NCBI GenBank assembly: GCA_018223105.1
Contig: JAAEYY010000006.1
Span: 72,806 to 136,805, forward strand
Direction: 5' to 3'
Origin: a bacterium
GTDB lineage: Bacteria; Bacteroidota; Bacteroidia; NS11-12g; UBA9320
DNA length: 64,000 nt
The position numbers were made by a program, and so were the translations under genes. Numbering within the stretch: position 1 is the stretch's first letter; each line of letters opens with the position of its first letter. Of this stretch, positions 6,354 through 42,756 are shown piece by piece. The notes under the pieces were generated by a model that saw only the letters and a program-made list of their open reading frames with translations, did not search any database and was not told the origin of the DNA.

Positions 6354-6431
6354 AAAATATTATTATGCTTTAAAATATAGACTAAGGTTTTGTGAAAAAT
6401 GCCAGGTATTGGCTGAAGTGATTTTGAAATA

Positions 6432-6773
6432 TTAGCAAGAAAATTCCGGTGGAGGAGTATAGATCTCCAAAAGTGGAGGCATTTCTGCTTTGAAACTTCG
6501 CTCTTTAATTAATGTCTTTTGTTCTGATTTTTCTTGAGATAAGCTGCGGTGCTCCGATAAAAAGATCTCAAAGTCTTCGTCTAGTTCTGATTCACTACTC
6601 TCAGTATCAGTCTCAACTTCTTCCGATAATTCCATAGAATTATCCCAAAGAAAATGCATGCTGTTGATTAGAATCGTAGGTACTGCAATCATTAGCAAAC
6701 CATAGATCAAAAGCACTTTGGCATTTGCTTTAAGTACTGTAGAAAATGATCCTTGAGAATGCTGCTTTGACAT
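6432..6773 (-). CDS. Hypothetical small membrane protein with an acidic Ser/Glu-rich segment
   Basis: The ORF has one predicted transmembrane helix (VLLIYGLLMIAVPTILI) followed by EEVETDTESSESELDEDFE. The start is uncertain: the track gives 6815 and an internal ATG lies at 6773. Confidence 0.3.
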   Translation of the reverse strand: MSKQHSQGSFSTVLKANAKVLLIYGLLMIAVPTILINSMHFLWDNSMELSEEVETDTESSESELDEDFEIFLSEHRSLSQEKSEQKTLIKERSFKAEMPPLLEIYTPPPEFSC

Positions 6774-6846
6774 ATAAATCCCAACAAAGGAAGCAGTAAC
6801 GGTAGTCAAATGCAAACTATTTAACGCTCAAAAATATTAGTGCAAT

Positions 6847-7242
6847 ATGTATTTTTACAAAATGAGATTTCTAACGCTTGCCCTGACATGCTTCTGGTTT
6901 AGTTGCTTTGCGCAGCAAGATTCATTATATAGTGATTATGATACGATGCCTCAGTATGAAGAAGGACTTCATGCACTTTATATATTCTTTTCTGAAAATA
7001 TTGCCTATCCTGAGGAAGCAGTTTCAGACAGCGTTGAAGGTACGGTTCGCTTATGTTTTAATATTGATACCAATGGCAATGTTGAGTTTAAGCAATTTGT
7101 TTCAGATCGCATCGGATCAGGTTTAGAGGAAGAGGCTCTAAGAGTTCTTATGTTAACAGACGGGCATTGGCTTCCTGCTACAAAAGATGGAAAAGCAGTT
7201 ATTGGTAGTCTTAGTCTTCCAATACGTTTTCAATTAGAGTAG
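6847..7242 (+). CDS. TonB C-terminal domain protein (energy-transducer TonB family, short form)
   Basis: It has a signal peptide, then AYPEEAVSDSVEGTVRLCFNIDTNGNV, which is the classic TonB_C motif. An alternative start is ATG 6862. Confidence 0.6.
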   Translation: MYFYKMRFLTLALTCFWFSCFAQQDSLYSDYDTMPQYEEGLHALYIFFSENIAYPEEAVSDSVEGTVRLCFNIDTNGNVEFKQFVSDRIGSGLEEEALRVLMLTDGHWLPATKDGKAVIGSLSLPIRFQLE

Positions 7243-7259
7243 GTAATTGTGATAACCTG

Positions 7260-7685
7260 CTATAATCCTAGCAGTTGCTCAGATTTTAGCTTATGATAAT
7301 GCAATGCCGCGTGAATACATTTTTTAATTAACGGTTTAGGAGGATCTTCATTTAACAGCATCACTACGGCCCTGTTTCCTTCATATCTCAGTTCATCACC
7401 AAAAACAGCTTTAAAACTCGATACAAGTTTACTTGAACAACTAAAATACAAAGCATACTGCTCAGGCGACTTCTCTTTCCAATCCATTCTTAAAGTACTA
7501 CCTATCTTGGTGATATAACTAGGCTCACCCCATTTTAAGGTTTCTTGTACTTCTGCTATTTGGTCGGACTCTTGAGCTACAAGTTCTATTAAATTTCGTA
7601 TTTCTTGAAGTTTGGTTTGTACCAGATCCGGATAGGATTTAATGATAGCTAAAGTAGCAGGGTTTGATTTAAGTTTAGAGCTCAT
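7260..7685 (-). CDS. DUF1801 (YdhG-like) domain protein
   Basis: It is about 141 aa. The pattern ETLKWGEPSY...MLLNEDPPKPLIKKCIHAAL resembles the DUF1801 family. Confidence 0.5.
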   Translation of the reverse strand: MSSKLKSNPATLAIIKSYPDLVQTKLQEIRNLIELVAQESDQIAEVQETLKWGEPSYITKIGSTLRMDWKEKSPEQYALYFSCSSKLVSSFKAVFGDELRYEGNRAVVMLLNEDPPKPLIKKCIHAALHYHKLKSEQLLGL

Positions 7686-7755
7686 TTTTCTTAACGATGC
7701 TCAAATTATATTAGAAACTCAATCAAATCAAGTATGAACACCAGAATCAGTATTT

Positions 7756-8643
7756 TTACTTTAAATGCTTCTCAGCATGATAGCTGGATCGAACCAATGG
7801 CCCACTTTCAATATAGTCGAATCCAAGATCTTCACCGATAGCTTTGTACTTCGCGAATTGATCCGGATGTACATATTCCGCCACCTTCAAATGACGACCC
7901 GTTGGTTGCATATATTGTCCTAATGTGATGATCTCAACCCCTACGTTTCTCAAATCTCGCATGGTTTCAATAACCTCTTCTTCAGTTTCTCCCATTCCGC
8001 ACATTAAACCGCTTTTCGTTTTCATGCCCTGAGACTTCAAGTATTCAAGCACAAATAAACTTCTGTCATACTTAGCCTGAACTCGAACTTCTTTAGTAAG
8101 TCTTCGTACAGTTTCAATATTATGAGAAACAATTTCCGGATGAACGGCAACAATGTTATCAATTTGGTCTGTTTTTCCTTGAAAATCGGGAATAAGAGTC
8201 TCCAAAGTAACGTCCGGATTAAACTCGCGAATAGCCTGTACTGTTTTTGCCCAGTGTCCTGATCCTCCATCCGGTAAGTCGTCTCTATCTACTGAGGTAA
8301 TTACAGCGTGTTTGATGCCCATCATGTTAATAGATTGCGCCACTTTAAATGGCTCTAAACTATCGAGAATATCGCCTTTTCCGGTTGCTACATTGCAAAA
8401 CTGACATGAACGGGTACAGGTATTACCCAAAATCATGAAAGTAGCAGTTCCTACTCCCCAACACTCCCCAATATTCGGACACTTTCCGCTTTCGCAAATC
8501 GTGTGTAATTTGTTTTCACGGACAAGTTTAAGCATGTCGCGGTATTTCCCGTCGCCCGGGATTTGAGTTTTCAACCAATCAGGTTTAACCCTCTTATTTT
8601 GCTTAATCTTTACTTCCGGTTTGTTCTCAATCTTGTTCGGCAT
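7756..8643 (-). CDS. lipA: Lipoyl synthase
   Basis: It has CxxxCxxC radical-SAM motifs (CTRSCQFC) and the lipoyl-synthase N-terminal cysteine cluster (CESGKCPNIGECW). Confidence 0.95.
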   Translation of the reverse strand: MPNKIENKPEVKIKQNKRVKPDWLKTQIPGDGKYRDMLKLVRENKLHTICESGKCPNIGECWGVGTATFMILGNTCTRSCQFCNVATGKGDILDSLEPFKVAQSINMMGIKHAVITSVDRDDLPDGGSGHWAKTVQAIREFNPDVTLETLIPDFQGKTDQIDNIVAVHPEIVSHNIETVRRLTKEVRVQAKYDRSLFVLEYLKSQGMKTKSGLMCGMGETEEEVIETMRDLRNVGVEIITLGQYMQPTGRHLKVAEYVHPDQFAKYKAIGEDLGFDYIESGPLVRSSYHAEKHLK

Positions 8644-29336: not shown

Positions 29337-30329
29337 ATGCCAATATTAGATTTTCAACAGCCTGACAAGGTAATCATGCATAAAGAAACAGACAACTACG
29401 GTCTGTTTGAATTTAGCCCACTTGAAAAAGGTTACGGTGTAACTGTGGGTAATGCCATGAGAAGAATCTTGCTATCTTCTTTGGAAGGATGGGCAATTAC
29501 TTCTATCCGAATTCCGGGAGTTGACCACGAATTCGCAACTATCAAAGGCGTATTGGAAGATGTAACAGAGATTGTGCTTAACATGAAGCAAGTTCGATTC
29601 AAGAAATTGATCGACTCGAATGAAAGCGAAAAAATCTTTGTAAGCCTAAAAGGAAAAGAGCAATTCACTGCAGGTGAAATTGCACGTTATACAAATGCAT
29701 TCGAAATCCTTAACCCGGATTTCGTAATCTGCTCAATGGAACCATATGTAAACCTTGAAGTTGAACTTACAGTTGAAAAAGGTAGAGGTTATGTTCCTGC
29801 GGAAGACAATGAGCAAGAAAATGCTCCTATCGGAGAAATTGCTATTGACTCTATCTTCACACCTATAAAGAACGTTACTTATAAGGTAGAAGATTTCCGT
29901 GTTGAGCAAAGAACTGACTTTGAAAAATTAATCTTCGAAGTAAAAACTGACGGGTCTATTCACCCGGAAGAAGCTTTGAAAGAAGCTGCGAAGATTATGA
30001 TTCGTCACCTTGTATTATTCTCAGACGAGAGTATCCTTCTAGATACTCAAGTTCAGTCTCAGAAGAACGAGGTTGATGAAAATATGCTTCACATGAGAAA
30101 GATCTTGAAAACTCCACTTTCTGATCTAGACCTTTCTGTTCGTGCTTACAATTGCTTGAAAGCTGCGGAAATCAGAACTCTAGGTGAACTAGTGAGCTAC
30201 CAGATCGAAGATCTATTGAAGTTTAGAAACTTTGGTAAGAAATCACTTACTGAATTAGAAGATTTTGTAAAAGAAAAAGGATTGAACTTCGGAATGGATA
30301 TTTCTAAGTACAACCTTGACGACGAATAA
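29337..30329 (+). CDS. rpoA: DNA-directed RNA polymerase subunit alpha
   Basis: It is 330 aa with the N-terminal and C-terminal domain architecture of RpoA. Its position after rpsD is conserved. Confidence 0.95.
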
Positions 30330-30334
30330 GAATC

Positions 30335-31063
30335 ATGAGGCACGGAAAGAAATTTAATCACTTAGGACGCAAGAAAGGGCATAGAGATGCTATGCTTAGC
30401 AATATGGCAAGCAGCTTAATCTTGCACAAGCGTATCTTTACTACCACTGCTAAAGCAAAAGCGTTGAGAGTATACGTAGAACCTTTGATCACCAGATCAA
30501 AAGATAATACAACTCACTCTAGACGTGTGGTATTTAGCTACCTTCAAGATAAAGATGCAGTAAATGAACTTTATACCACTGTTGGTCCTAAAGTAGCTGA
30601 TCGTCCCGGAGGATATACCAGAATCCTAAAAACACACAATCGTTTGGGAGATAACGCAGACATGTGTATGATGGAGTTGGTTGATTTTAACGAACTTATG
30701 CTAGAAGCTCAAGAGAAATCTACAGCAAAGAGCGGTTCTAAACGTACACGTAGAGGTGGCAAGAAATCAACAGGTACATCTACTCCTAAAGCAGCAGCAG
30801 AGAAAGTAGCTAAGAAAGCAGAGGAAGTAGCCGAAGAGGTTAAAGATACTGCCGAAGAAGTTGTTGAAACTGCAGCTGAAAAAGTAGAAGAAGTAGCAGA
30901 AAATGTTGCCGAAACTACAGAAGACGTTGTTGAAGAAGTGAAAAATACGGCAGAAGAAGCAGTAGAAGCTGTGGAAGATGCGGTTGAAGATGCTACTGAT
31001 TCTAACGACGATTCATCAGATGATTCTTCTGAAGAAGATTCAGACGAGAAAAAAGACAAATAG
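30335..31063 (+). CDS. rplQ: 50S ribosomal protein L17 with a roughly 120-aa acidic, repetitive C-terminal extension
   Basis: The L17 core is [21 protein letters not shown]...MELVDFNE. The tail is rich in AEEV / VEEV repeats and ends [17 protein letters not shown]. Confidence 0.9.
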
Positions 31064-31117: not shown

Positions 31118-31483
31118 CTAAATTTTATAGATATCCGTGGGATTGTCGAGGATAATGGCCTTATTTCCGCGCACCGCTATAGGGCTTCTAACCAGATGCG
31201 GATTATTCATGAGTAAATAGACCCAATCTCGCTCCTCAAAATCCCGTCCTCTAATATTAGCTTGGTAATAGGGAAGGCTTTTATCTAGCAATTCCTTTGG
31301 CGACTTATTCAACTTACTTAGGATACTGTGCCAGATGGTTCCTGTGCCTTTCGTCTTTTGAATATCAAAGGCGTTTACATTGGATGAAATACTTCGGGCG
31401 TATGCCAGCGCCTTCTTAGCTTTTGAACATTCAGGATTGTAATAGATCTGAATTTCGGCAGTGGATGTGATGGTTTTATGCAT
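31118..31483 (-). CDS. ArsC/Spx-family protein (arsenate-reductase-like thioredoxin fold)
   Basis: The N-terminal CxxS motif is YYNPECSKAKKAL. It is about 121 aa. Confidence 0.6.
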   Translation of the reverse strand: MHKTITSTAEIQIYYNPECSKAKKALAYARSISSNVNAFDIQKTKGTGTIWHSILSKLNKSPKELLDKSLPYYQANIRGRDFEERDWVYLLMNNPHLVRSPIAVRGNKAIILDNPTDIYKI

Positions 31484-31672
31484 GAGCGTCTAGTTTTAGT
31501 CCTTATTAAGGTAATATACTGCTGGGAAAATTCAAAGTGGCTCTGTATAAGTAACTGATAAATAGCGTTCCAAATTTTCCACCATTTGTCAATTAGGAGC
31601 AATATTCAGTGAGTTGAGGGGCGGATTTAAATCTGAGCTTAACTTCCTTTGAAAACGCTCCACTTCCGAAAA

Positions 31673-32139
31673 ATGATATCTGTACTTATATTATTTGTAG
31701 TCATTATGCAACTGCCTAAGACAATATAGCTCAAGATACTCTATTAGAAGCAGGCATTATTCTCTATGCCACCTCTGTCCAGAAGTATTTTATAGACAAT
31801 AGCTATTTATCAGAAAATATATCTACTGAGACCTTTACAGTAGGGGCTTTTCTTAAGTTTAATGCTGGACTGTGGGCCATGCGATTTGGTGTGAGATTTG
31901 ATGAGATTAGCTACGTAAATACACAATCTAATCCGGAGGTAAAACTATTTTTTAGCTCATAACAACTCACCTTTGGTGGCCAAAACCTATTCAATGTTGG
32001 AAAGATTATGCCTATGCTTGCGCTTGACATTAGCTACAGCGAAAGTAGAATTGATGGCAATATGTTATCTAATCGTATAGCTGATTTCGAGTACTTGGAT
32101 ATAAACGCTCGATTCGGATATTTTGGCGGAATCTTCTAA
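31673..32139 (+). pseudogene. Disrupted gene for a small outer-membrane beta-barrel-like protein, with one frameshift and one in-frame stop
   Basis: Frame 1 reads a signal-peptide-like MISVLILFVVIMQLPKTI, then TAG. The +1 frame continues DNIAQDTLLEAGIILYATSV...PEVKLFFSS, then TAA, then QLTFGGQNLFNVGK...INARFGYFGGIF*. The terminal aromatic residue is typical of OMPs. No intact ORF longer than 80 aa is present. Confidence 0.4.
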
Positions 32140-32310
32140 ACAGGAGTGCGATTTCATATGACGAGTCTCCTAACCTTAACCTAAGAGACTGCTTTGCACT
32201 TACATTATCATAAATACAGAAATTATGAATTTGCAGCCAAGATAAAACCTTTGTTCATTTCGAATTCACCAATACAAACCTTCGGTTTGAGTTATAGGAT
32301 TGATGTGTGA

Positions 32311-32892
32311 TTAGTAAATTGAGTCAAATATTCTATAACTAATGTTTATTTGGCCTTGTACTATAGGTGATAGGTTGTAGTAAGTTCTACGTCTTTGAAA
32401 CTCATAGCCAAATGGGATAAGAAAACCTATACTAGGTTCAATTTTCACTCTTGATGTGGTTCTGATCGTATAGTTTATTCGGACTTCGGGTTCGAATGAG
32501 ACATAAGTTGAACGGAAATTAATTCCCCATGAATATAGATCTTCCTTAATTAAATTGAACGAGAGATTTGCGGAGACTGACAAATTGTTATTTCGTGATG
32601 CTTCTTTGAAGTAGATTCGCCGCTCTAACATACTTCCTATTTTTATAGCATGATTGTTTTGATATTCTAGAGGTACGACCCAACCTGTATTGAATGAAAG
32701 TATCGTACTTACAAAGCTGTTGTTTTGATGTTCAAAGAACAACCCGAAGGATCCAACAAAGGAGATTGGATGATGTAGATCTAAGCTTGGAGGACCATGT
32801 ACAACGGACGCTTGTGTCTTCGATGAATAAACAACCAAAACTAAGAGTAGAATCTTTTTCACAGAATAGGCATTATCAGTTAAAATTAGCAA
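32311..32892 (-). CDS. Putative small outer-membrane beta-barrel protein
   Basis: It has a signal peptide (KKILLLVLVVYSSKTQA), alternating-hydrophobic beta-strand patterning and a C-terminal aromatic residue (…DSIY). It is convergent with the pseudogene. Confidence 0.4.
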   Translation of the reverse strand: MLILTDNAYSVKKILLLVLVVYSSKTQASVVHGPPSLDLHHPISFVGSFGLFFEHQNNSFVSTILSFNTGWVVPLEYQNNHAIKIGSMLERRIYFKEASRNNNLSVSANLSFNLIKEDLYSWGINFRSTYVSFEPEVRINYTIRTTSRVKIEPSIGFLIPFGYEFQRRRTYYNLSPIVQGQINISYRIFDSIY

Positions 32893-33035
32893 AATAATTA
32901 CTGTAAACCACTAAAGATTGAAATAGATAACACTTTCTTAATAATGAAAAACTTAAACAAAATATTTCTACAAATACTAAAATCATATTTCCAATCTACT
33001 TTCTTCCTATTTTTGCTCTAGCAACCAAATAATCA

Positions 33036-33389
33036 ATGAAATACTTATATATCCTAATTCTAGCTCTGTTTCTAAGCGCGTGTTTCGGAGCGAAAACAAC
33101 ATCTAACCTGAGTCAAACAGATGTAGACCGTATGCAAGACAAGTACCCGGGCTATACATTGGAACAACTTCAAAAAGGCCATACCCTTTACACTGAACAT
33201 TGCGGTAACTGTCACGGACTTAAAGACCCAAAATCTGAACCCTTAGAAGAATGGGAAGAAATCGTTCCTGAAATGGCGGAGAAAATTGAAAAGAAAAAGG
33301 GATATACACTTTCACAAGATCAGCAAGATCTTATTTTGAAATATGTTATCACCATGGCTACTGCTGAGGAAGAGCAGAGTGAAGAATAA
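33036..33389 (+). CDS. Small lipoprotein with a CxxCH heme-binding motif (putative monoheme c-type cytochrome)
   Basis: It has a signal peptide and lipobox (LFLSACFG) and the motif HCGNCHG. A downstream Met is available as the sixth heme ligand. Confidence 0.45.
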   Translation: MKYLYILILALFLSACFGAKTTSNLSQTDVDRMQDKYPGYTLEQLQKGHTLYTEHCGNCHGLKDPKSEPLEEWEEIVPEMAEKIEKKKGYTLSQDQQDLILKYVITMATAEEEQSEE

Positions 33390-33413
33390 AAAAGGCCATG
33401 CTTTCACACGGCC
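33380..33413. repeat. Copy 1 of a 34/35-bp direct repeat containing a bidirectional terminator hairpin (GGCCATGC-TTTC-ACACGGCC)
   Basis: TGAAGAATAAAAAAGGCCATGCTTTCACACGGCC is repeated at 34841-34875. On the minus strand the hairpin is followed by a U6 run, terminating the 404-aa gene. On the plus strand it follows the CxxCH lipoprotein gene. Confidence 0.7.
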
Positions 33414-33447
33414 CTTGGGTTTTAATCTTTCTTTAATCTACGGGACT

Positions 33448-34662
33448 CTAATACCTATATAATGCGTTTGCTTTAGCGCTATCTATCGGCATATATTTTT
33501 TCTCTAAAAGGTAAACATCACCACCTGTATTCAAAACCTTCATGGCCAGAAGGTTTAATAAGGATACGTTGGGAGCTTCATGTTTCTCGTCCACACGTAA
33601 TTCTTGATTCTTAGGATCATAGACTCCAAAGACATCAGCTTTGTTTTCCAAGAATAGGGTATCGATTCTACCTGCAAAAGCAGCCGGTAAGATGTCATTA
33701 AGGTTTGCAGACGCTTTTCCGGTTCCAATCAATTCTGAGAATTGTTTCAGCTTTTTTGTTCTCTTCTCATCAAAGTAAGGTTGGACTAAATTCCATGCTT
33801 CTTCATGGAGCATTAAACTGTCTTTATCTGCCGGATTTCCAGAGATATGTTTTGAGAACACATTGCCATAAGAGCTGATCTCTTTATAAATTGGATAATA
33901 ATAGTCTAACGATGCAATAATTAAAGGTGTTTGTTGTTTGTCATGCAATAGATTTAAGATTCCGTTGTCTATGGCTCTGAAGTAACGCTCAAGTTCCTTT
34001 TTTTCTGTGCTTTCGGTGTCTTCCTGACCATGAAAAGTTCCAACACCTTGATTTCCTTGCTGTGTCCTAAATTGAACGCCTTTGTCTTCGTAGTCATAGC
34101 CTACACGGTCCTCTAATTGCCCCGGAATAAGGTCATCGATATTAATTTCAGTGATTTGATGTCTACTGCCTTCAAAGAACTTCACATCGTCCTTTTGTAA
34201 GGTTAAAAGATAGAACAATCCGTCACCATTGAAAAGTGGAATCAACGGTTTTAAGTAGAACTCGTTTGATAGGTAATTATAGGCTTCGAAATGAACAGGT
34301 ACAGTATGCATCTGAAATAGTTCTTCTGATAAGAAAATGGCTAAGCCATCGGATTGATATCTCCAGAATGTGCTGTCTTCAATTAATTCAGATATTGGTT
34401 TGGTGAAGGATTCAATTTCATCATCACTCATACCTTGATCTGATAATTTCGTCCTGATTGACTTTAGTTGATTCTTCAGGTTTATTGCATCTTTTCCTTC
34501 CATAGTCTCAGCTCCGGATCGATGGGTAGGTATAAAGATCGACACACAGAAACTACTGTGATGGTCTGATAATTTCAGTACTTCATTCTTTGTAAGGATT
34601 TCTTTGTTGTATTGACTTGTTCTATTCATAATGTTTTTTTCAGTTTTAGATGAGTTGTACAT
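33448..34662 (-). CDS. Hypothetical protein with an eRF1/Dom34-like (aeRF1-type release-factor fold) central and C-terminal region; possible baeRF / VLRF1-type
   Basis: Three regions resemble the release-factor fold. The central loop GVGTFHGQEDTE sits where the GGQ loop would be. EKKELERYFRAIDNGI follows it, like eRF1's EKRHNYVRKVAE. The C-terminus NTGGDVYLL...ANALYRY resembles eRF1 domain 3 (GGIGGILRY). There are no transmembrane helices or signal peptide. Confidence 0.45.
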   Translation of the reverse strand: MYNSSKTEKNIMNRTSQYNKEILTKNEVLKLSDHHSSFCVSIFIPTHRSGAETMEGKDAINLKNQLKSIRTKLSDQGMSDDEIESFTKPISELIEDSTFWRYQSDGLAIFLSEELFQMHTVPVHFEAYNYLSNEFYLKPLIPLFNGDGLFYLLTLQKDDVKFFEGSRHQITEINIDDLIPGQLEDRVGYDYEDKGVQFRTQQGNQGVGTFHGQEDTESTEKKELERYFRAIDNGILNLLHDKQQTPLIIASLDYYYPIYKEISSYGNVFSKHISGNPADKDSLMLHEEAWNLVQPYFDEKRTKKLKQFSELIGTGKASANLNDILPAAFAGRIDTLFLENKADVFGVYDPKNQELRVDEKHEAPNVSLLNLLAMKVLNTGGDVYLLEKKYMPIDSAKANALYRY

Positions 34663-34840
34663 AGCCAGATATATTTCAAGAAGAACTTTTATCGATCTTC
34701 CATTGTTGGTTGAAGGCTGTTAAACTAGTACAGCTGATATCCTTATAAGATACAAAAAAAAGCGCGTAAAGCCAAGTGTTTCCGACCTTCGTTTGCAGGT
34801 TTGACTCCATTAATGAAGTATACATTCTTCTTACTTGTAA

Positions 34841-34875
34841 TGAAGAATAAAAAAAGGCCATGCTTTCGCACGGCC
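34841..34875. repeat. Copy 2 of the 34/35-bp direct repeat and terminator hairpin (GGCCATGC-TTTC-GCACGGCC)
   Basis: It matches copy 1 at 34 of 35 positions, with one extra A and an A-to-G change in the loop region. On the minus strand it forms a perfect 8-bp stem with a GAAA loop and a U7 run, terminating the M42 peptidase gene. Confidence 0.7.
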
Positions 34876-34901
34876 TTTTAATTTCTAGTTTCCTGTCTTT
34901 C

Positions 34902-35972
34902 TTATTTAAAGTATCTGAAATCGTGATCTGCTTTTAACTGAATCACAAATTCATACATCAATTTAATAACGCTTTCTATGTCGTCATAAGCTACTGTTTC
35001 AACCGTAGTATGCATGTACTTCAATGGTAAGGAGATTAATGCAGAGGCTACTCCAATATCGCTGTATGCAAAAGCATCGGTATCAGTTCCTGTAGATCTG
35101 CTTGCTGCCATTCTTTGGAATGGAATCTTCTTCTTCGTGGCAACATCAATCACCATCTTCAAAAGATTGTTCTGAACAGCAGGCCCTGTAGTAATACAAG
35201 CACCACCGCCACATTTCGTGTCGCCTTGCTCTTTCTTGTTATACATAGGAGAGTGGGTGTCATGACAAACGTCGGTAACAATAGCCACATTAGGCTTTAT
35301 ACGACGTGAAATCATTTCTGCACCTCTTAATCCAATCTCTTCTTGAACGGCATTGACGATGTATAGACTAAAAGGAAGTTTTTTCTTGTTCTCGTGAAGC
35401 ATGCGTGCTACTTCGGCAATCATAAAACCACCTGCACGGTTATCTAATGCTCTTCCAACCACATATTTCTTGTTGAGTTCCATTACATCAGCATCAAAAG
35501 TGACAACCGTTCCTACATGGATGCCCATTTTCTCAACTTCTTCTTTAGAATCAGCTCCAACATCAATGCTTAAATTTGATAAACTTGGTTGAGGTTCTTT
35601 AGAACGATCTCTAACGTGAATAGCAGGCCATCCGAAAACGCCATCTACCATTCCTTTGTCTGTATGGAGTTTAACCCTCATAGATGGTGCAATCTGATGA
35701 TCACTTCCACCGTTTCGGATAACGTAGATGTATCCTTTATCATCGATGTAGTTCACAAACCAAGCAATTTCGTCGGCATGAGCCTCTAAAACCACTTTGT
35801 ACTCTTTCCCTGGATTAATAACACCCATGGTTGATCCGTAAACATCCACCTCATACTCATCAATATAAGGCTTTAAGTACTCCAACCACAATTGCTGTCC
35901 TGGAGTTTCAAATCCGGTTGGCGAATTGTTGTTTAAATATGCATGTAAAAATTTCTTGCTTGCTTTTCTCAT
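34902..35972 (-). CDS. M42 family metallopeptidase (glutamyl aminopeptidase / FrvX-like)
   Basis: It is 356 aa with M42 metal-binding regions (HADEIAW, DNRAGG, QEEIGLRGA, and a D..H region). Confidence 0.8.
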   Translation of the reverse strand: MRKASKKFLHAYLNNNSPTGFETPGQQLWLEYLKPYIDEYEVDVYGSTMGVINPGKEYKVVLEAHADEIAWFVNYIDDKGYIYVIRNGGSDHQIAPSMRVKLHTDKGMVDGVFGWPAIHVRDRSKEPQPSLSNLSIDVGADSKEEVEKMGIHVGTVVTFDADVMELNKKYVVGRALDNRAGGFMIAEVARMLHENKKKLPFSLYIVNAVQEEIGLRGAEMISRRIKPNVAIVTDVCHDTHSPMYNKKEQGDTKCGGGACITTGPAVQNNLLKMVIDVATKKKIPFQRMAASRSTGTDTDAFAYSDIGVASALISLPLKYMHTTVETVAYDDIESVIKLMYEFVIQLKADHDFRYFK

Positions 35973-36016: not shown

Positions 36017-39000
36017 TTAATCACGGTCTTTGGCTGTTTCACTTTCCACAGATCCTTTTTGAGGACCCAAATCGTCGTAGGCCATTTCAAGATCTTCAAA
36101 AGTTTTAGGTTCAGTTTTCGATTCGCCTCGAACTATTCTTTTAGTCCAGGCAGTCAATTGATCACTTAGATAATACATCACCGGAACAATTACAAGTGTC
36201 ATGAAGGTAGCGAAGATTAATCCGAAGATTACCGTCCAAGCCATAGGACCCCAGAATGAAGCATTATCACCTCCAACATAAAACTGTGCATCAAATTTTG
36301 TGAGTAAGGTGTAGAAGTTCACATTCATTCCTATCGCCAAAGGCACCAGACCTAGTACCGTTGTGATTGCAGTAAGTAAAACCGGTCTCAATCGGGTTCT
36401 ACCACCGTCGATGATGCTATTCAATACATCTTGCTCCGGAAGTCGATCACCCGGCTTTAAACCGAGTTCAACACGTTTTCTTTTTCTCAAGAGATTGGTA
36501 TAGTCTATCAATACAATCGCATTGTTTACAACAACCCCTGCCAGTGAGATAATTCCAATACCACTCATCATGATAGAGAACGGCATTCCGGTGATACCAA
36601 ATCCGAGGAATACTCCGATGGTACTAAAGAGTACAGAGAACATAATAATCAATGGACCTACTACCGAGTTAAACTGGGTTACAATAATCAAGAAGATGAT
36701 AAAAACTGCGAGAAGCATAGCACCCGCTAAGAACTCTGTTGAAGCAGTTTGCTCCTCTTGCTCACCTGTGAACTTAAACTCATATCCGGGCTTGGTTTCG
36801 TGGTCTGCTAAAACTTCTTTGAATTTTGCCACAATCTCATTTGCGTTAGCACCTTCTTCTACTTCAGAATAAATTGAGATTACACGATCCATATCTTTTC
36901 GTTTAACCGTACCGTAGGTAGAGTTGTAGTCAATATTGGTTACTGCTGAAATAGGTACCTGAGAAATCTGACCGGTAGCCATGTTTCTGAACGTGATGAC
37001 TGTGTTGAGGAGGTTTCCTAAATTGTATCGATAATCTTCTTTAAATCGAAGTTGAATCTCATAATCATCCTCACCTTCTTTATATTTTCCAATCTCCTTA
37101 CCTAACAATGCAGTTCTCAAAGTACTCGCAATTTGAACGGTACTCAAACCAAATCTTCGGGCAGCTTCTCGGTTGATGGTAATCTCCAACATGGGTTTAC
37201 CTAACTCAAGATCCGTCTTTAATTGGTCAACACCCGCAATATCGGCGTCCTCCATTTTCTGTTTAATTTTCTCGACCTCGTCGATCAAGGTAAGGTAATC
37301 TTCACCTTTCACTTCAACATTAATCGGTTTTCCTACAGGAGGTCCTACAGCATCCTTGCTAAAGGTAAGTCTAGCTTCCGGGAAATCTTTACATGCATTT
37401 TTTATTTCCTGCATGATGATGGAAGTAGATACATTATCTTCAATAAAAACCCTATCGCTGTACTCGAGGAAGGAAACAGTAATACGCGCTTTATGTGGAG
37501 AAGAACCATTCTGTGGACCTTCGTTTGGATCTGAAGTTTTCTCACCAACTTGGGCTAACATAGCTTCCACTAAGGTGTCATATGGCTGAATAGCGGCATC
37601 TATGCGCTCTTCTAATTTCTTCGTGATCTTATCTGTTTTATAGATATCCGTTCCTAATGGCGCTTCAACAAAAATGTTAACGTACTTCGGCTCATTATCA
37701 GGAAAGAACACAATCTTAGGGTTGCTCATTCCGAAGAACATCAATGAAAAAATCATTAAAAGTATAGTACCTACGAAGAAAACAATGGGACGACGCTTGC
37801 TTAATGCAAACCTTGCAAAATTGGCATAACCATTCTCTAGTTTCGGCATGAGGTTCTCCATGAAGTAATCTCCGCCTGGTGATAAAACATATCTGCTCAA
37901 CAACGAGAAGAAAATCCCGGCAAAAAAGAGTCCACCAATCACTTTAAAGGTAGGAGTGAAGAAAAACAGCATTCCCACAATAAACATGATTGCAATCCTC
38001 AACCAGAATCTATTGCCTTTACTTACTTTATTCTTTCCTACCTTCATTAGGTCAGCGGTAAGCACCGGATTCACAACCAATGCCACAAAGAGAGAACTCG
38101 ACAGCACAATTATTAAGGTGATTGGCAGGTACTTCATGAACTCACCCATAAGGTCTTTCCAAAACAAGAGTGGAACAAATGCTGCTACGGTAGTTGCAGT
38201 AGATGAGATGATAGCTGATGCTACTTCACCAGTTCCTTGTTTAGAAGATTCTTCCGCATCAAGTCCAACTTCACCCCGCAATCGGTAGATGTTTTCAACG
38301 ACCACAATTCCATTATCCACCAGCATACCTAGAGCCAGGATCAAAGAGAAAAGTACCATCATGTTGAGGGTAGTTCCTGCAAAATGCAAGATTGCAATAC
38401 CCATAAGCATGGATAGAGGAATAGCAATACCTACGAACATCGAGTTTCTTACACCCAAGAAGAAAATGAGAACGATAACCACGAGAATTACCCCCATAAT
38501 TATACTGTTCTCCAAGTTATCTACCATCATCGTGGTAAACTTCGACTGGTCATTCGTAACTACTATTTCCAGATCTTTTGGAAATACATCTGCTTCAGCT
38601 TTTTTGATTATGCTTTGAATTCCGGCTGCGGCGTCCAATAGGTTTCCACCACTTTTTTTCTTTACATCCAGAGTAACAACGGGGCGCTGATTTAATCTCG
38701 CGAAACTGGTGGGTTCTTTCTGTCCGAAATGAACTTCGCCAATATCTCTTAGGTATACAATGTTCTGGAACTCATTTTTAATAATGACATTCTCAAGTTC
38801 CCTGTAATCATCAAATTCTCCATCAATACGTATCGATCTTCTTGTGATATCTGAGCCTTCTACACTCTTAATGTCACCACCACTCATGGTGATGTTTTCT
38901 CCTGAAATGGCTTGCTCTACATCGTTCAATGAAATCTCAAGCGCTTCCATCTTCACACGATCAATGGCAATTTCAACTTCTTCTTCGGTTAAACCGGTAA

Positions 39001-39553
39001 TATCTACTGATGAAACTTCAGGTAAATTCTCAAACTCGTCTTTCAGATACTCTGCATAGTCTTTTAATTTATCCTGAGAGTAATCACCACTTACGTTTAC
39101 GTTCATTACCGGGAACTCAGAAAAGTCGAGCTCCATTACATTAGGATCTGCCGGTAAATCATTCGGTAAATCGGGTTTAGCCCGGTCTACTGCGTCTTTT
39201 ACTTCTTGAAGAACCTCATTTGACGGTAAGTCTAACTCAAACTCTGCTACTATAATCGAAAAATCTTGTATCGAGGTTGATGTGAGTTTCTTAAGGCCAC
39301 TAATAGTGTTGATCTCCTTTTCTATAGGACGCGTAACCAGATTCTCCATATCAATAGGAGAGTTACCCGGGTAAGGAGTGTTTACATATATCGTAGGCTG
39401 TTTTATCTCAGGAAAACTTTCCTTAGGCATGCTACTGTAGCTCGAGAAACCAATGATACTGATGATTACGATCATCACATATACACTGATTCTGTTGTTC
39501 ACAGCCCAAGATGAAAGTTTAAATTCCTTTATTACTTCCTTTATTTTGCTCAT
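36017..39553 (-). CDS. Efflux RND transporter permease subunit (AcrB/HAE1-like) with a C-terminal tail
   Basis: It is 1178 aa with 12 transmembrane segments and two large periplasmic loops, which is the typical RND architecture. Confidence 0.9.
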   Translation of the reverse strand: MSKIKEVIKEFKLSSWAVNNRISVYVMIVIISIIGFSSYSSMPKESFPEIKQPTIYVNTPYPGNSPIDMENLVTRPIEKEINTISGLKKLTSTSIQDFSIIVAEFELDLPSNEVLQEVKDAVDRAKPDLPNDLPADPNVMELDFSEFPVMNVNVSGDYSQDKLKDYAEYLKDEFENLPEVSSVDITGLTEEEVEIAIDRVKMEALEISLNDVEQAISGENITMSGGDIKSVEGSDITRRSIRIDGEFDDYRELENVIIKNEFQNIVYLRDIGEVHFGQKEPTSFARLNQRPVVTLDVKKKSGGNLLDAAAGIQSIIKKAEADVFPKDLEIVVTNDQSKFTTMMVDNLENSIIMGVILVVIVLIFFLGVRNSMFVGIAIPLSMLMGIAILHFAGTTLNMMVLFSLILALGMLVDNGIVVVENIYRLRGEVGLDAEESSKQGTGEVASAIISSTATTVAAFVPLLFWKDLMGEFMKYLPITLIIVLSSSLFVALVVNPVLTADLMKVGKNKVSKGNRFWLRIAIMFIVGMLFFFTPTFKVIGGLFFAGIFFSLLSRYVLSPGGDYFMENLMPKLENGYANFARFALSKRRPIVFFVGTILLMIFSLMFFGMSNPKIVFFPDNEPKYVNIFVEAPLGTDIYKTDKITKKLEERIDAAIQPYDTLVEAMLAQVGEKTSDPNEGPQNGSSPHKARITVSFLEYSDRVFIEDNVSTSIIMQEIKNACKDFPEARLTFSKDAVGPPVGKPINVEVKGEDYLTLIDEVEKIKQKMEDADIAGVDQLKTDLELGKPMLEITINREAARRFGLSTVQIASTLRTALLGKEIGKYKEGEDDYEIQLRFKEDYRYNLGNLLNTVITFRNMATGQISQVPISAVTNIDYNSTYGTVKRKDMDRVISIYSEVEEGANANEIVAKFKEVLADHETKPGYEFKFTGEQEEQTASTEFLAGAMLLAVFIIFLIIVTQFNSVVGPLIIMFSVLFSTIGVFLGFGITGMPFSIMMSGIGIISLAGVVVNNAIVLIDYTNLLRKRKRVELGLKPGDRLPEQDVLNSIIDGGRTRLRPVLLTAITTVLGLVPLAIGMNVNFYTLLTKFDAQFYVGGDNASFWGPMAWTVIFGLIFATFMTLVIVPVMYYLSDQLTAWTKRIVRGESKTEPKTFEDLEMAYDDLGPQKGSVESETAKDRD

Positions 39554-39574
39554 CGCTTTTTGCTTTAGCTATTC

Positions 39575-40708
39575 TTATTCAATAATCTTTACTTCATCGC
39601 CTTCAATTACTGCATTGTAACCTTCGGTGATGATAATATCTTCCGGGTTTAAGCCGGACTTTATGATCGTTTCTGAAGCAAACTCCTCTTGTATTTCTAT
39701 ATATGACTTTTGAACGATTCTCTTTTCGCCCTGACTCTTTAAGGTTAAGATATAATCTCCTTTGGCGTCAGTGTTAATCAATTTAGTTGGAACAGCAATT
39801 ACATTGTCCTCAGCAAAATCGTAAGCTGTAATGATGGCCAATAAGTTTGGCTTCATTTTATCGAGATGAGACGTAGGTTTTACATAAACTGAGAAAGTTC
39901 TGTTATTCACATCAATCACATTTCCAACCGCATCAATTTTCTCCGTAAGTTCCAAATCAAGAGAAGGGAAATAAACTTTTACCTGATCTCCTTTTTTCAT
40001 CTGACCTACATAGCTCTCAGAAACTGATGCTTTGATTTTAATATCTGAAAGATTTACGATTCTAGCTACAGGTCCACCGGTCATGCTACCAACGAGTTCA
40101 CCTTCATTCGCCATAATCTCATCAACAGTTCCATTGATAGGAGAGATGAGTGTGTATTTCCCGAGTTGAGTTCGCGCTGTTTTAATGCTGTTTTGTAGAT
40201 TCTCGTAATTGTTCTTAGCTTGAAGATATTGCATTTCAGAGCCTATGTTCTTCTCCCATAAACTTTTTTGCTTTTCGTAATTGGTTTTAGCCAAGGTTAA
40301 GGCATTCTCCAATTCTGCAATTTGAGATTGAGCAACTGAACCATCAAGGCTAGCAATGGTTTGTCCTTTGCTAACTCGTTGGCCTTCAGAAACATAGATC
40401 TTAACTATTTTTCCCGGCACTTCTGGTGTAATCATCACGTTTTGATCAGATTCTACCAAACCTTGAATTTGGAAAGGGTTTTTAAAGGTACCTTTAGATA
40501 TTGCCTCAGCACGAACAGCAATAGCATTGCTTCTCATGTTAGTGTCTATTGCTGCAATCTCTTCTTTTAAAGTAGCGATAGAATCTTTTAATGCTACAAG
40601 ACGAGCTTCTTGTTCTTTAAGTAAGTTCTTCTTTGCATCAAGTGTGCTCTCTTCTCCGGTGCCACATGCTACTAGAAAGAGAATAAAAACTGGGATTAGG
40701 TATTTCAT
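39575..40708 (-). CDS. Efflux RND transporter periplasmic adaptor subunit (MFP/HlyD family), lipoprotein
   Basis: It has a lipobox (LVACGTG) and coiled-coil plus barrel-sandwich regions. It sits between tolC and the RND gene. Confidence 0.85.
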   Translation of the reverse strand: MKYLIPVFILFLVACGTGEESTLDAKKNLLKEQEARLVALKDSIATLKEEIAAIDTNMRSNAIAVRAEAISKGTFKNPFQIQGLVESDQNVMITPEVPGKIVKIYVSEGQRVSKGQTIASLDGSVAQSQIAELENALTLAKTNYEKQKSLWEKNIGSEMQYLQAKNNYENLQNSIKTARTQLGKYTLISPINGTVDEIMANEGELVGSMTGGPVARIVNLSDIKIKASVSESYVGQMKKGDQVKVYFPSLDLELTEKIDAVGNVIDVNNRTFSVYVKPTSHLDKMKPNLLAIITAYDFAEDNVIAVPTKLINTDAKGDYILTLKSQGEKRIVQKSYIEIQEEFASETIIKSGLNPEDIIITEGYNAVIEGDEVKIIE

Positions 40709-40726
40709 TGTTTTGTGTTCGGCTGT

Positions 40727-42115
40727 TTATAGGTTTCCGTAAGCTTTGTCTAAATTGATTTTCGCTACACTTAATTCGTAAAGTGCATTGAGGTAGTTGG
40801 TTTGAGCTATAGTTAAATCACGTTCTGCATTCACCATCTCGAAGGAGCTACCTACGCCTTCTTGAAATTTAATTTTTGTGGTATTATAAATGGATTCTGA
40901 TAATTCAATGTTTTTCTTTTGGATTTCCAGATTTCGATATGCATTTCTGTAAGTAGTTTGCGCTTGCGCGATTTCAAGGGCAATACCGTTTTTGGCTTGC
41001 TCCAAAGAGTTAGTGGTTTTTAAGATGTCAACTCTTGCCTGGTCTGCTTTTGATTTCTTATACAATCCATCGAAAATGGGGATGCTCAGACTTAGACTGT
41101 ATGAAGACAATCCAAACCATTCATTTCCTAATTGATCGAACTGGTCTTTCTGACCGAAAGTGTTAAAACCGTAGTTTGCATTTAGATAAATGGTTGGAAT
41201 GTATCCTACTTGATATCTTTTGAGATCTAACTCATTTAAAGCTTGCTGTTGCTCCAAAATTTGTATTTCTATTCTGTTTGATAGGTCAGCGCTCTCAACA
41301 AATTCAGGAGAAAATGTAGTCTCATCAAACTCGGGAAGCGCTGTTGTTAAACTGATTTCCTGATTCACGTCTAAGCCCATGCTGTTTAACAATAACTTCT
41401 TCGTTAGCTCCGCCTGGTTTTGAAGATTGTTGATATTGATTTCCACCTGTGATACAGATAATACAAGTCGATCTACATCTAGTTGCTCTGCATAACCGGC
41501 ATCGTATAATTCTTGAGTTTCTTTTTTCAGTTTCTGCAAGTTCTCTAAACTCTTTTCAAGCTGTCCAAGGTTCTGTTCTGAAATCAAAGCCATGTAATAC
41601 GCTTTATAAACTCCTTCTTTAACATCTATGGCAGATTTAGACAGGAGGAGCTGACTCACATTCACAAACTCAGACGCCGCTTTCAATCCTAAAAAGAAGG
41701 TTCCGTCGAAGATGAGCTGCTGCATACCAACCGTTGCCTGTAAGGAGTATGGAACTCCAAATTGCGCAGGGAAAGATCCGAAACTTCTATTGGGGTCGGG
41801 TTGCACAAGACCTTCTTGAATCAGAACTCCGTAAACTGAAGGAGAAATGAAATCAGGAAATACCTGCGTTGCAATTTCCAGGTTATGGGTGAAATTTACA
41901 TTTCCATTGACTTGGGGTAGTCCCATGGATCGAACTTCATCTACCTGATTTTCAGCATACTCAATGTCGAGTGCTGCATTTCTGTGAGCTTGATTATTGG
42001 CTAAAGCGGTGCTTATGGCTTCGTCAAGGCTTATCTCGAGCACGTCACCCGGCTCTTGTTGAGCGAATGCTATGCTAAATGGTAGAAGTAAAACTAAGCT
42101 TAAGAGTTTTTTCAT
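40727..42115 (-). CDS. TolC-family outer membrane efflux protein
   Basis: It has a signal peptide and the two-repeat TolC architecture. It is 462 aa. Confidence 0.85.
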   Translation of the reverse strand: MKKLLSLVLLLPFSIAFAQQEPGDVLEISLDEAISTALANNQAHRNAALDIEYAENQVDEVRSMGLPQVNGNVNFTHNLEIATQVFPDFISPSVYGVLIQEGLVQPDPNRSFGSFPAQFGVPYSLQATVGMQQLIFDGTFFLGLKAASEFVNVSQLLLSKSAIDVKEGVYKAYYMALISEQNLGQLEKSLENLQKLKKETQELYDAGYAEQLDVDRLVLSVSQVEININNLQNQAELTKKLLLNSMGLDVNQEISLTTALPEFDETTFSPEFVESADLSNRIEIQILEQQQALNELDLKRYQVGYIPTIYLNANYGFNTFGQKDQFDQLGNEWFGLSSYSLSLSIPIFDGLYKKSKADQARVDILKTTNSLEQAKNGIALEIAQAQTTYRNAYRNLEIQKKNIELSESIYNTTKIKFQEGVGSSFEMVNAERDLTIAQTNYLNALYELSVAKINLDKAYGNL

Positions 42116-42756
42116 AATTTCAAATGTTCGTTGAGGTAGTCTGTTCCTTTGTTAGTACAAATACTATTTAAATGATAATGAATTGCTTCTGCTTGTAAAT
42201 TGGGGATTTCAATGTTTTGACCAATTGCAAAACCGGGTTGAACCATGTTTTGAACCAGGCATACATAGATGGAAGCAACAATGTCAATATTGAAATTTTC
42301 TCTGTATAGGCCTTCTTTACGACCTTGTATTATATTCTGTTTAATATTTTTAAAGATGAATTCTGTGGTGAAGTTTTGGAATTTTTGCCAGCAATTAGGA
42401 TAATACTTTTGTATATCATACATAACAGCCGGATTCATCCCTTCAAGGCTTTTATGAACGTACTTACTCATTTCTAGCACTTGCTCTATAGCATTTGTTG
42501 CTTCCTCAAAGCAAGTATTGCAAACATCCTTGTCGTTACTGAGGTGGTTGTCGAATACCGTATTCACCAATTCTCTTTTGTCCTTAAAGTGCTGATAAAT
42601 GGTTTTCTTGCTCATACCCAACTCACGAGCGAGATCGTCCATACTCACACTTTTAATGCCGATTCTCATGAAAATCGACTCGGCTTTTTTTATAATGAGG
42701 TCTCTCGTTTCCAAAATTCGGTGCAAATGTATACGCAGGAAACTTTCAAAATGCAA
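42112..42756 (-). CDS. TetR/AcrR family transcriptional regulator
   Basis: The HTH region is SVSMDDLARELGMSKKTIYQHFKDKRELV. It overlaps tolC by 4 nt. The start may be internal. Confidence 0.8.
   Translation of the reverse strand: MHFESFLRIHLHRILETRDLIIKKAESIFMRIGIKSVSMDDLARELGMSKKTIYQHFKDKRELVNTVFDNHLSNDKDVCNTCFEEATNAIEQVLEMSKYVHKSLEGMNPAVMYDIQKYYPNCWQKFQNFTTEFIFKNIKQNIIQGRKEGLYRENFNIDIVASIYVCLVQNMVQPGFAIGQNIEIPNLQAEAIHYHLNSICTNKGTDYLNEHLKL

Follow-up and report, generated by a model that had tools for sequence, protein, structure and literature searches.

The window analysed here is a 64,000-nt stretch of a Bacteroidota genome (contig JAAEYY010000006.1, positions 72,806–136,805), which carries a single copy of a gene for a Balon-like protein of the baeRF-1 clade. 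The coding sequence, identified from the open reading frame (ORF) list, Pfam, NCBIfam and phmmer, occupies 33448..34662 on the minus strand and encodes 404 amino acids when read from the first ATG. It lies between a small cytochrome c-like lipoprotein gene (33036..33389, plus strand), to which it is convergent, and an M42 peptidase gene (34902..35972, minus strand), both taken from the window annotation. An earlier reading of the same DNA (the original prediction) had described the product as an aeRF1-type release-factor-fold protein lacking transmembrane helices, and as a candidate ribosome-rescue or conflict factor. The position, strand and length of the ORF agree with that description, and a hydrophobicity check of the 404-residue protein found no stretch compatible with a transmembrane helix. 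The three peptide segments that had suggested the fold map to residues 202–217, 220–235 and 378–404. Both the protein and Balon are acidic, with predicted isoelectric points of 5.1 and 4.9, respectively.

Two further start codons are candidates, an ATG at 34629 (M12) and an ATC at 34599 (I22). Homologues start with MITK, which aligns to I22-L23-T24-K25, and ATC stands here where the homologues have ATG. The NCBI record of the identical protein ('hypothetical protein GYB22_05215', 383 aa) starts at this ATC, and the in-frame ATGs sit 10 and 21 codons upstream of it (M12 and M1); a look-up of contigs that encode this record returned none. Residues 1–20 are disordered in the AlphaFold2 model. A pseudogene or spurious ORF was considered and rejected, given that the frame is intact, the homology is full-length and the predicted fold is of high confidence.

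Family placement

The protein almost certainly belongs to the broad Balon/baeRF-1 family. The best Pfam match is baeRF_family7 (E 2.6e-41; 141.6 bits, gathering cutoff 27.2), which is followed by baeRF_family3 (E 1e-40; 140.3 bits, cutoff 31.5) and baeRF_family6 (E 1.8e-32). These matches span residues 150–295/332 in the central RNase H-fold domain, and by their scores the assignment is a tie between families 7 and 3. Families 7, 6 and 3 belong to the baeRF-1 clade (Burroughs and Aravind 2019), and homologue records in the data sources are named 'baeRF7/baeRF3 domain-containing protein'. Balon of Psychrobacter urativorans, which was used as a control after its residues 2–361 were rebuilt from Protein Data Bank (PDB) alignments, matches baeRF_family3 (E 4.5e-30). 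The control comes from the Gammaproteobacteria, whereas the window protein comes from the Bacteroidota.

The NCBIfam model NF052287 ('AOC03_06830 family ribosome hibernation factor') matches residues 30–404 with an E value of 5e-42. The score of 144.5 bits is below the equivalog cutoff of 330, while Balon itself scores 489.7 bits, and by the NCBI criterion the window protein is a homologue, not an equivalog, of this family. The model of the mycobacterial homologues Msmeg1130 and Rv2629, NF052288, gives a marginal match only (E 0.01; 14.8 bits, cutoff 480). In a phmmer search against the PDB, the sole significant match is Balon (8RD8, 8RDV and 8RDW, chain B; E 1e-14, residues 32–395), and it improves to E 3e-23 when a 46-sequence family profile is used. 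The same profile does not reach the mycobacterial Balons in the PDB by sequence, and these proteins are linked to the window protein by the structure searches only. BLASTP aligns the window protein to Balon with 22% identity over 375 aa (E 1e-17). Chain B of the three entries is deposited as 'Methyl-accepting chemotaxis protein', a name that would mislead if the match were read by it alone, since the chain is really Balon.

The family is large. Among 1.84 billion representatives of 50%-identity clusters, phmmer finds 7,065 relatives at E ≤1e-3 and 2,455 at E ≤1e-30. Cultured carriers include Psychroflexus spp. and Peijinzhouia sedimentorum. Helena-Bueno et al. (2024) delimited the Balon family as iterative HMMER homologues of AOC03_06830 that have at least 300 aa and three domains; a further hallmark of the family in their sense is that under stress, and with EF-Tu(GDP), it binds the A site of 70S ribosomes, vacant or translating. 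The window protein shows significant full-length similarity to P. urativorans Balon by phmmer, profile search, BLASTP and NF052287, and it has three aeRF1-like domains and a length of at least 300 aa. VLRF-1 (Vms1-like) proteins are recognized by a GxxQ/GGxSQ loop with a conserved Gln, the lack of a C-terminal Pelota domain and a Pfam VLRF1 match. The window protein, by contrast, is matched in Pfam by baeRF families only, carries a C-terminal Pelota-like domain and has an unconserved Gln.

Predicted structure and domain organization

We modeled the protein with AlphaFold2 from the family alignment. The model has a predicted local distance difference test score (pLDDT) of 81 and a predicted template modeling score of 0.74, and the pLDDT falls below 50 only at residues 1–20 and in the loop 190–215. 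A Foldseek search of the PDB ranks three Psychrobacter Balon chains first (E ~4e-22), followed by Msmeg1130 (1e-18), archaeal aRF1 (4e-14) and Rv2629 (1e-13). eRF1 and Pelota/Dom34, with which the original prediction had proposed a structural comparison, are both matched; they rank after Rv2629, and thus below Balon and Msmeg1130. The aeRF1-type fold is therefore borne out by Pfam, the model and Foldseek as a three-domain protein of the baeRF-1 clade. The nearest characterized relatives are hibernation factors, not release or rescue factors.

The N-terminal domain (~residues 22–145; 34228..34599, minus strand) is the equivalent of the aeRF1 N-domain according to the model and Foldseek, and lacks NIKS. 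The middle domain (~residues 146–310; 33733..34227, minus strand) adopts an RNase H fold and is the region of the Pfam baeRF models. The C-terminal domain (residues 311–404; 33451..33732, minus strand) resembles Pelota and eRF1 domain 3 by model, conservation and structure search and contains a conserved GG (380–381), which upholds the proposed likeness of the C-terminus to eRF1 domain 3. An Sm-like beta-barrel N-domain and Pelota as the closest fold match, by which a Pelota/Dom34 protein would be recognized, are not found here. The invariant GGQ and the NIKS-type motif of class-1 aRF1/eRF1 are likewise missing. In structure, the window protein stands much closer to the Balons than to aRF1/eRF1 and Pelota/Dom34. 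It is bacterial, and no gene for a GTPase partner lies nearby; as is general for bacteria, its host would have a normal RF1/RF2 system alongside.

The view, stated in the original prediction, that bacterial aeRF1-like families are essentially uncharacterized has been overtaken. Balon (AOC03_06830) was found on the ribosomes of P. urativorans, and cryo-electron microscopy shows Balon, Msmeg1130 (PDB 8V9J, 8V9L and 8V9K, with Rv2629) and Rv2629 bound at the A site of hibernating ribosomes (PMC10901736). NCBIfam models of hibernation factors now exist, and the window protein matches them below their cutoffs.

Putative decoding-centre loop and C-domain hairpin

Balon, Msmeg1130 and Rv2629 have several traits in common: NIKS and GGQ are absent, the C domain carries a beta-hairpin or a larger insertion, and an extended N-domain loop on the face opposite NIKS binds the decoding centre, where it is termed the 'HP motif' in Balon (PMC10901736 supplement). 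Neither a NIKS nor a GGQ motif occurs in the sequence of the window protein. The best-conserved segment of its N-domain among close homologues is P45-T46-H47-R48-S-G50-A-E-T-M-E-G-K-D58 (34489..34530, minus strand), in which P45, T46, H47, G50 and D58 stand out. This loop aligns with the Balon segment 'KTHREHPANDQD' (K-T-H-R-E-H-P-A-N-D-Q-D), the site of the sole His-Pro dipeptide of Balon. We infer that it is the counterpart of the decoding-centre loop, a placement made through that single dipeptide rather than through coordinates, by means of the alignments to Balon, the conservation and the published supplement (PMC10901736). The two loops have T-H-R and the closing Asp in common; the loop of the window protein is two residues longer and reads S-G-A-E, without the His-Pro.

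The model predicts a two-strand beta-hairpin in the C domain (residues 345–358; 33589..33630, minus strand), with strands at 345–349 and 354–358, between a strand at 333–339 and a helix at 368–378. The hairpin aligns inside the C domain of Balon, as checked by secondary structure and alignment without superposition in three dimensions. It fits the 'two beta-strand insert' in the Pelota domain described for baeRF-1 proteins (PMC6514570), and on the strength of the model and the alignment it would correspond to the baeRF-1/Balon beta-hairpin insertion, the 'beta-loop' by which Balon contacts EF-Tu (PMC10901736 supplement). The mycobacterial proteins have larger insertions in their C domains (PMC10901736 supplement).

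Genomic contexts of homologues

Nine annotated homologue loci were sampled for context; a scan of genome contigs with the single protein returned one locus (L005, Ignavibacteriae), and the peptide patterns used were too specific. The homologue of locus L011, with 64% identity, ends a same-strand cluster of HPF, MscS and the Balon-like gene with gaps of 15 bp and 23 bp. Its HPF is a 99-aa Ribosomal_S30AE protein (PF02482), and the cluster adjoins two genes for cold-shock-domain proteins and one for a fatty-acid desaturase. In L013 and L017 MscS lies directly upstream of the Balon-like gene, and in L003 a single gene separates the two, so that the MscS and Balon-like pair is present in four of the nine contexts (L011 4820-7170, L017 4977-6992, L013 4861-7152 and L003 6571-9143). 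This partnership suggests a connection with osmotic or cold stress that, to our knowledge, has not been described for Balon.

The remaining neighbours include BON, DJ-1/PfpI, Cu-SOD and lipocalin genes in L001, a LigD end-joining operon and a Macro-domain gene in L012, and glyoxalases in L014 and L018. No defence gene adjoins the homologue in any of the nine contexts. Balon genes are surrounded by genes of the stress response, with RaiA/HPF as the most frequent neighbour (PMC10901736), and baeRF-1 proteins have been linked to HPF and predicted to be non-catalytic A-site binders (PMC6514570); the sampled contexts agree with these published neighbourhoods.

The loop at the GGQ position

A long M-domain loop (residues 186–215; 34018..34107, minus strand), which belongs to the low-confidence part of the model, is placed where eRF1 has its GGQ loop and Balon its lasso loop. 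The Balon lasso loop surrounds A2602, and the middle domain of Balon also has a bL27-trap loop. At the end of the loop of the window protein stands H211-G212-Q213 (codons at 34024..34032, minus strand), just before a conserved helix at 216–239; Balon has G-G-S there. The original prediction had seen a Gly-Gln loop in the position of GGQ, and the placement stands: secondary structure from the model and the Balon alignment, used without superposition, put HGQ in the M-domain loop before the conserved helix. The Gln does not stand, because it is unconserved and His is the norm.

Conservation was counted in a close set of 119 homologues (at least 48% identity) and a divergent set of 148 cluster representatives (31–50% identity). 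H211 and G212 are each kept in 119/119 close homologues and in 88% and 95% of the divergent representatives, respectively. At position 213, the close homologues have His (84/119), Gln (15/119) or Ala (9/119), and the divergent representatives have His in 55% and Gln in 32% (48/148), with either of the two in 129/148. G214 is found in 68/119 close homologues and 79% of the divergent representatives, and Q197 in 116/119 and 86%; an L-Q-F-R segment of the subfamily loop is also conserved. The loop is 34–35 residues long in 112/119 close homologues, compared with 25 residues for the same stretch in Balon.

By these counts Q213 does not qualify as a conserved catalytic residue, and where GGQ has its first Gly, the homologues have a near-invariant His. 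Substitution of either single Gly of GGQ is enough to abolish the release activity of eRF1. The unconserved Q213 and the Gly-to-His replacement argue against canonical release-factor chemistry, because GGQ mutants of eRF1 are inactive (Frolova et al. 1999, reference 13 of PMC6514570).

It is nevertheless clear from the sequences that the loop tip is under selection in the subfamily, and it is the single feature that is not fully explained. The tip could belong to a catalytically active release or rescue factor that acts through HG(Q/H)G. The position of H211-G212-Q213 right before the conserved helix would suit such a factor, and so would a tip that remains constrained at 31–50% identity (H 88%, G 95%, H/Q 87%, G 79%). 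The loop, nine residues longer than that of Balon, could also reach further, and its narrow length range is of the kind that typifies catalytic families (Burroughs and Aravind, PMC6514570). However, only a minority of homologues have Gln at position 213, where His accounts for 55–71%, and the first Gly of the motif is lost in favour of His. All of the closest relatives by structure are hibernation factors without catalytic activity, a close homologue (L011) is clustered with HPF, and no NIKS-type or other codon-reading motif is found in the protein. We therefore consider a catalytic factor unlikely. The ribosome-rescue role named in the original prediction is less likely than hibernation. It is similarly doubtful, though conceivable, that the loop of the Bacteroidota/Ignavibacteria subfamily enters or senses the peptidyl transferase centre (PTC) and confers a distinct activity absent from Balon, which may be the hydrolysis of peptidyl-tRNA, with a His/Gln residue that positions the nucleophile, or the specific recognition of the nascent chain or the P-site tRNA.

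A putative Balon-type hibernation factor

We propose that the window protein is a member of the Balon family within the baeRF-1 clade, placed between Pfam families 3 and 7, and that it most likely plugs the A site as a ribosome hibernation factor without catalytic activity. The fold, the family placement, the absence of NIKS and GGQ, the conservation pattern and the genomic contexts were computed here. By homology to the characterized Balons, the protein would settle in the A site of the ribosome when the cell is in stationary phase or under cold or osmotic stress. The N-domain loop P45–D58 would contact the decoding centre without reading the mRNA. The C domain, beta-hairpin included, would point towards the factor-binding site, the place at which Balon touches EF-Tu(GDP) and the L7/L12 stalk. 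Access of tRNA and factors would thereby be blocked and the rRNA shielded until growth resumes. Ribosome binding, these inducing conditions, any involvement of EF-Tu and the lack of hydrolase activity are thus presumed from the relatives.

Several observations weigh against this assignment. The identity to Balon, ~22%, is low, and the NF052287 score does not reach the equivalog cutoff. The decoding-centre loop lacks the His-Pro dipeptide of Balon. The PTC-side loop is nine residues longer than in Balon, and its tip, [F/Y]-H-G-[H/Q]-G in place of T-G-D-G-G-S, is conserved like the best core positions. In the published description, baeRF-1 loops are poorly conserved and differ in length (PMC6514570), whereas the tip and the length of the loop are well conserved in this subfamily; the conserved longer loop could point to another activity. 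In the window, the gene has neither HPF nor MscS nor any other stress gene as a neighbour, and a Pfam scan of ten small window ORFs found no HPF/RaiA. Neither a Bacteroidota-type promoter (TTTG-N17-23-TAnnTTTG) nor a sigma-70-type promoter was found in 34663-34850. The Bacteroidota/Ignavibacteria subfamily has no experimentally tested member.

The divergence of the loops can be judged against a fourth case with experimental evidence, the Balon of Synechocystis. This protein shares 30% identity with its Psychrobacter counterpart and takes up the same pose on hibernating ribosomes loaded with HPF, and the residues through which it contacts the decoding centre and the PTC differ (bioRxiv 10.64898/2026.07.03.736309). 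Divergent loops are therefore compatible with a function in hibernation.

A protein that sits in the A site without catalysis may also act as a rescue or splitting adaptor in the manner of Dom34/Pelota, binding stalled ribosomes and recruiting a recycling factor rather than storing ribosomes. The window protein has the superfamily and the A-site geometry in common with Pelota/Dom34, this option was listed for baeRF-1 proteins by Burroughs and Aravind (PMC6514570), and a Pelota-like analogy was raised for Balon in the Synechocystis preprint (bioRxiv 10.64898/2026.07.03.736309). With Pelota ranked behind the Balons in the fold search, we regard such an adaptor as quite improbable.

If the protein is indeed a hibernation factor of the Balon type, the source bacterium uses the Balon mode, in which an aeRF1-like protein plugs the A site. 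A large and coherent Bacteroidota/Ignavibacteria branch, which is experimentally untouched, would be added to the Balon family, with a recurrent MscS partnership (with or without HPF) and a constrained H-G-[H/Q]-G tip at the GGQ position as its features of note. Annotations that now read 'hypothetical protein' or 'baeRF7 domain-containing protein' can reasonably read 'putative Balon-type ribosome hibernation factor'. The finding opens no new category of biology, and only the conserved longer PTC loop and the MscS/HPF partnership go beyond the routine.

Genomic setting and the variable segment

The gene lies in a segment of 3,418 bp (31484..34902) that is absent from the related locus L008. On one side of the segment, a ribosomal-protein superoperon ends with rpoA and rplQ (29337-31063) and is followed by ArsC (31118..31483, minus strand); on the other side, a complete TetR-OEP-MFP-RND efflux block (36017-42756, minus strand) lies upstream of the M42 gene on the same strand. 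In L008 the order is TetR-OEP-MFP-RND-M42-ArsC-rplQ-rpoA with a gap of 171 bp between M42 and ArsC, and blastn shows the window to be collinear with it over 42793–34903 and 31483–29001. The relatives L006, L007 and L009 carry other genes after M42, which indicates a variable position. The Balon-like gene is thus a patchily distributed accessory gene at a variable spot beside the conserved RND-efflux/M42 block. Multidrug-efflux genes are occasional neighbours of Balon (PMC10901736); here a terminator stands between, and the adjacency is probably incidental.

Besides the Balon-like gene and the cytochrome c-like gene, the segment holds a 193-aa ORF (32311..32892, minus strand), which has a hydrophobic N-terminus and no Pfam match, and 827 bp without an intact ORF (31484-32310). 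Short broken ORFs in the latter stretch partly resemble fragments of beta-strand-rich outer-membrane proteins, and 31484-32892 may represent a gene for an outer-membrane protein that is either decaying or novel.

The terminator that the original prediction had assigned to the gene is confirmed as a GC-rich stem followed by a U-run after the stop codon (33391..33416, minus strand; -19.9 kcal/mol, z -3.2), which lies before the convergent cytochrome c-like gene. A second hairpin of almost the same sequence (34852-34879; -21.7 kcal/mol, z -4.7) serves as the terminator of the M42 gene. The two hairpins are parts of a direct repeat of ~38 nt on both sides of the gene, in keeping with the repeat-bounded setting noted previously. 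In copy A (33380..33416), the first 10 nt are the last codons and the stop of the cytochrome c-like gene, while copy B (34841..34879), identified by repeat search and folding, is the M42 terminator and separates M42 from the Balon-like gene. The copies are 1,462 bp apart and differ by two substitutions and one A-run indel; two copies occur in the window, against none expected. The hairpin is absent from the L008 M42-ArsC spacer and from a set of 14 loci. The whole metagenome collection holds two exact matches; L015, the one of them that was inspected, shows an ordinary gene terminator in unrelated surroundings. With two window copies and two exact matches in the collection, a dispersed REP/MITE-like or attC-like element was rejected. 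Since the hairpin is not dispersed, the two copies come from local duplication, and since the cytochrome c-like coding sequence extends 10 nt into copy A, copy B was probably derived from copy A.

The patchy occurrence raises the possibility of a horizontally acquired conflict or defence factor against ribosome-targeting toxins or phage, carried in a mobile islet; a conflict role was also voiced in the original prediction. A conflict-context origin has been proposed for baeRF-1 proteins (PMC6514570). The closest Balon-like homologue is only 64% identical, whereas the M42 protein has relatives at 88–90% identity; the best named matches of the latter are from the Cytophagales (Marinigracilibium, Mangrovivirga, Algivirga and Cyclobacteriaceae), which points to a Cytophagales-like source within the Bacteroidota. 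The gene is bracketed by the duplicated hairpin within a segment that is missing from L008 and has a slightly lower GC content (0.35–0.37, compared with 0.39–0.40). However, a PADLOC-DB search returned no family at E ≤10, and the segment contains no integrase, transposase, toxin or other defence gene. A tRNA scan of the segment found none, no att-like feature was seen, and an Rfam scan gave sub-threshold chance matches only; a tRNA-targeted island was rejected on these grounds. The hairpin is an ordinary terminator rather than a dispersed mobile repeat, and the nine annotated homologue contexts show stress and housekeeping neighbours, with none from defence systems. A conflict factor is thus unsupported in the window and in the homologue contexts, and we consider it very improbable.

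In L006 and L007, a dCMP/cytidine deaminase-like gene and a gene for a 667-aa AAA_15/AAA_21 ATPase are inserted between the RND pump and M42 (5284-7884), where the window and L008 have none. ATPases of this type are common in defence systems, and the neighbourhood may thus hold a second variable or defence spot. The L17 protein encoded by rplQ in the superoperon (30335-31063) has 242 aa and is far longer than typical bacterial L17, and its last ~100 residues form a tail rich in Ala, Glu, Asp and Lys; its L008 orthologue (253 aa) gives faint matches to YtxH and apolipoprotein-like helical models.

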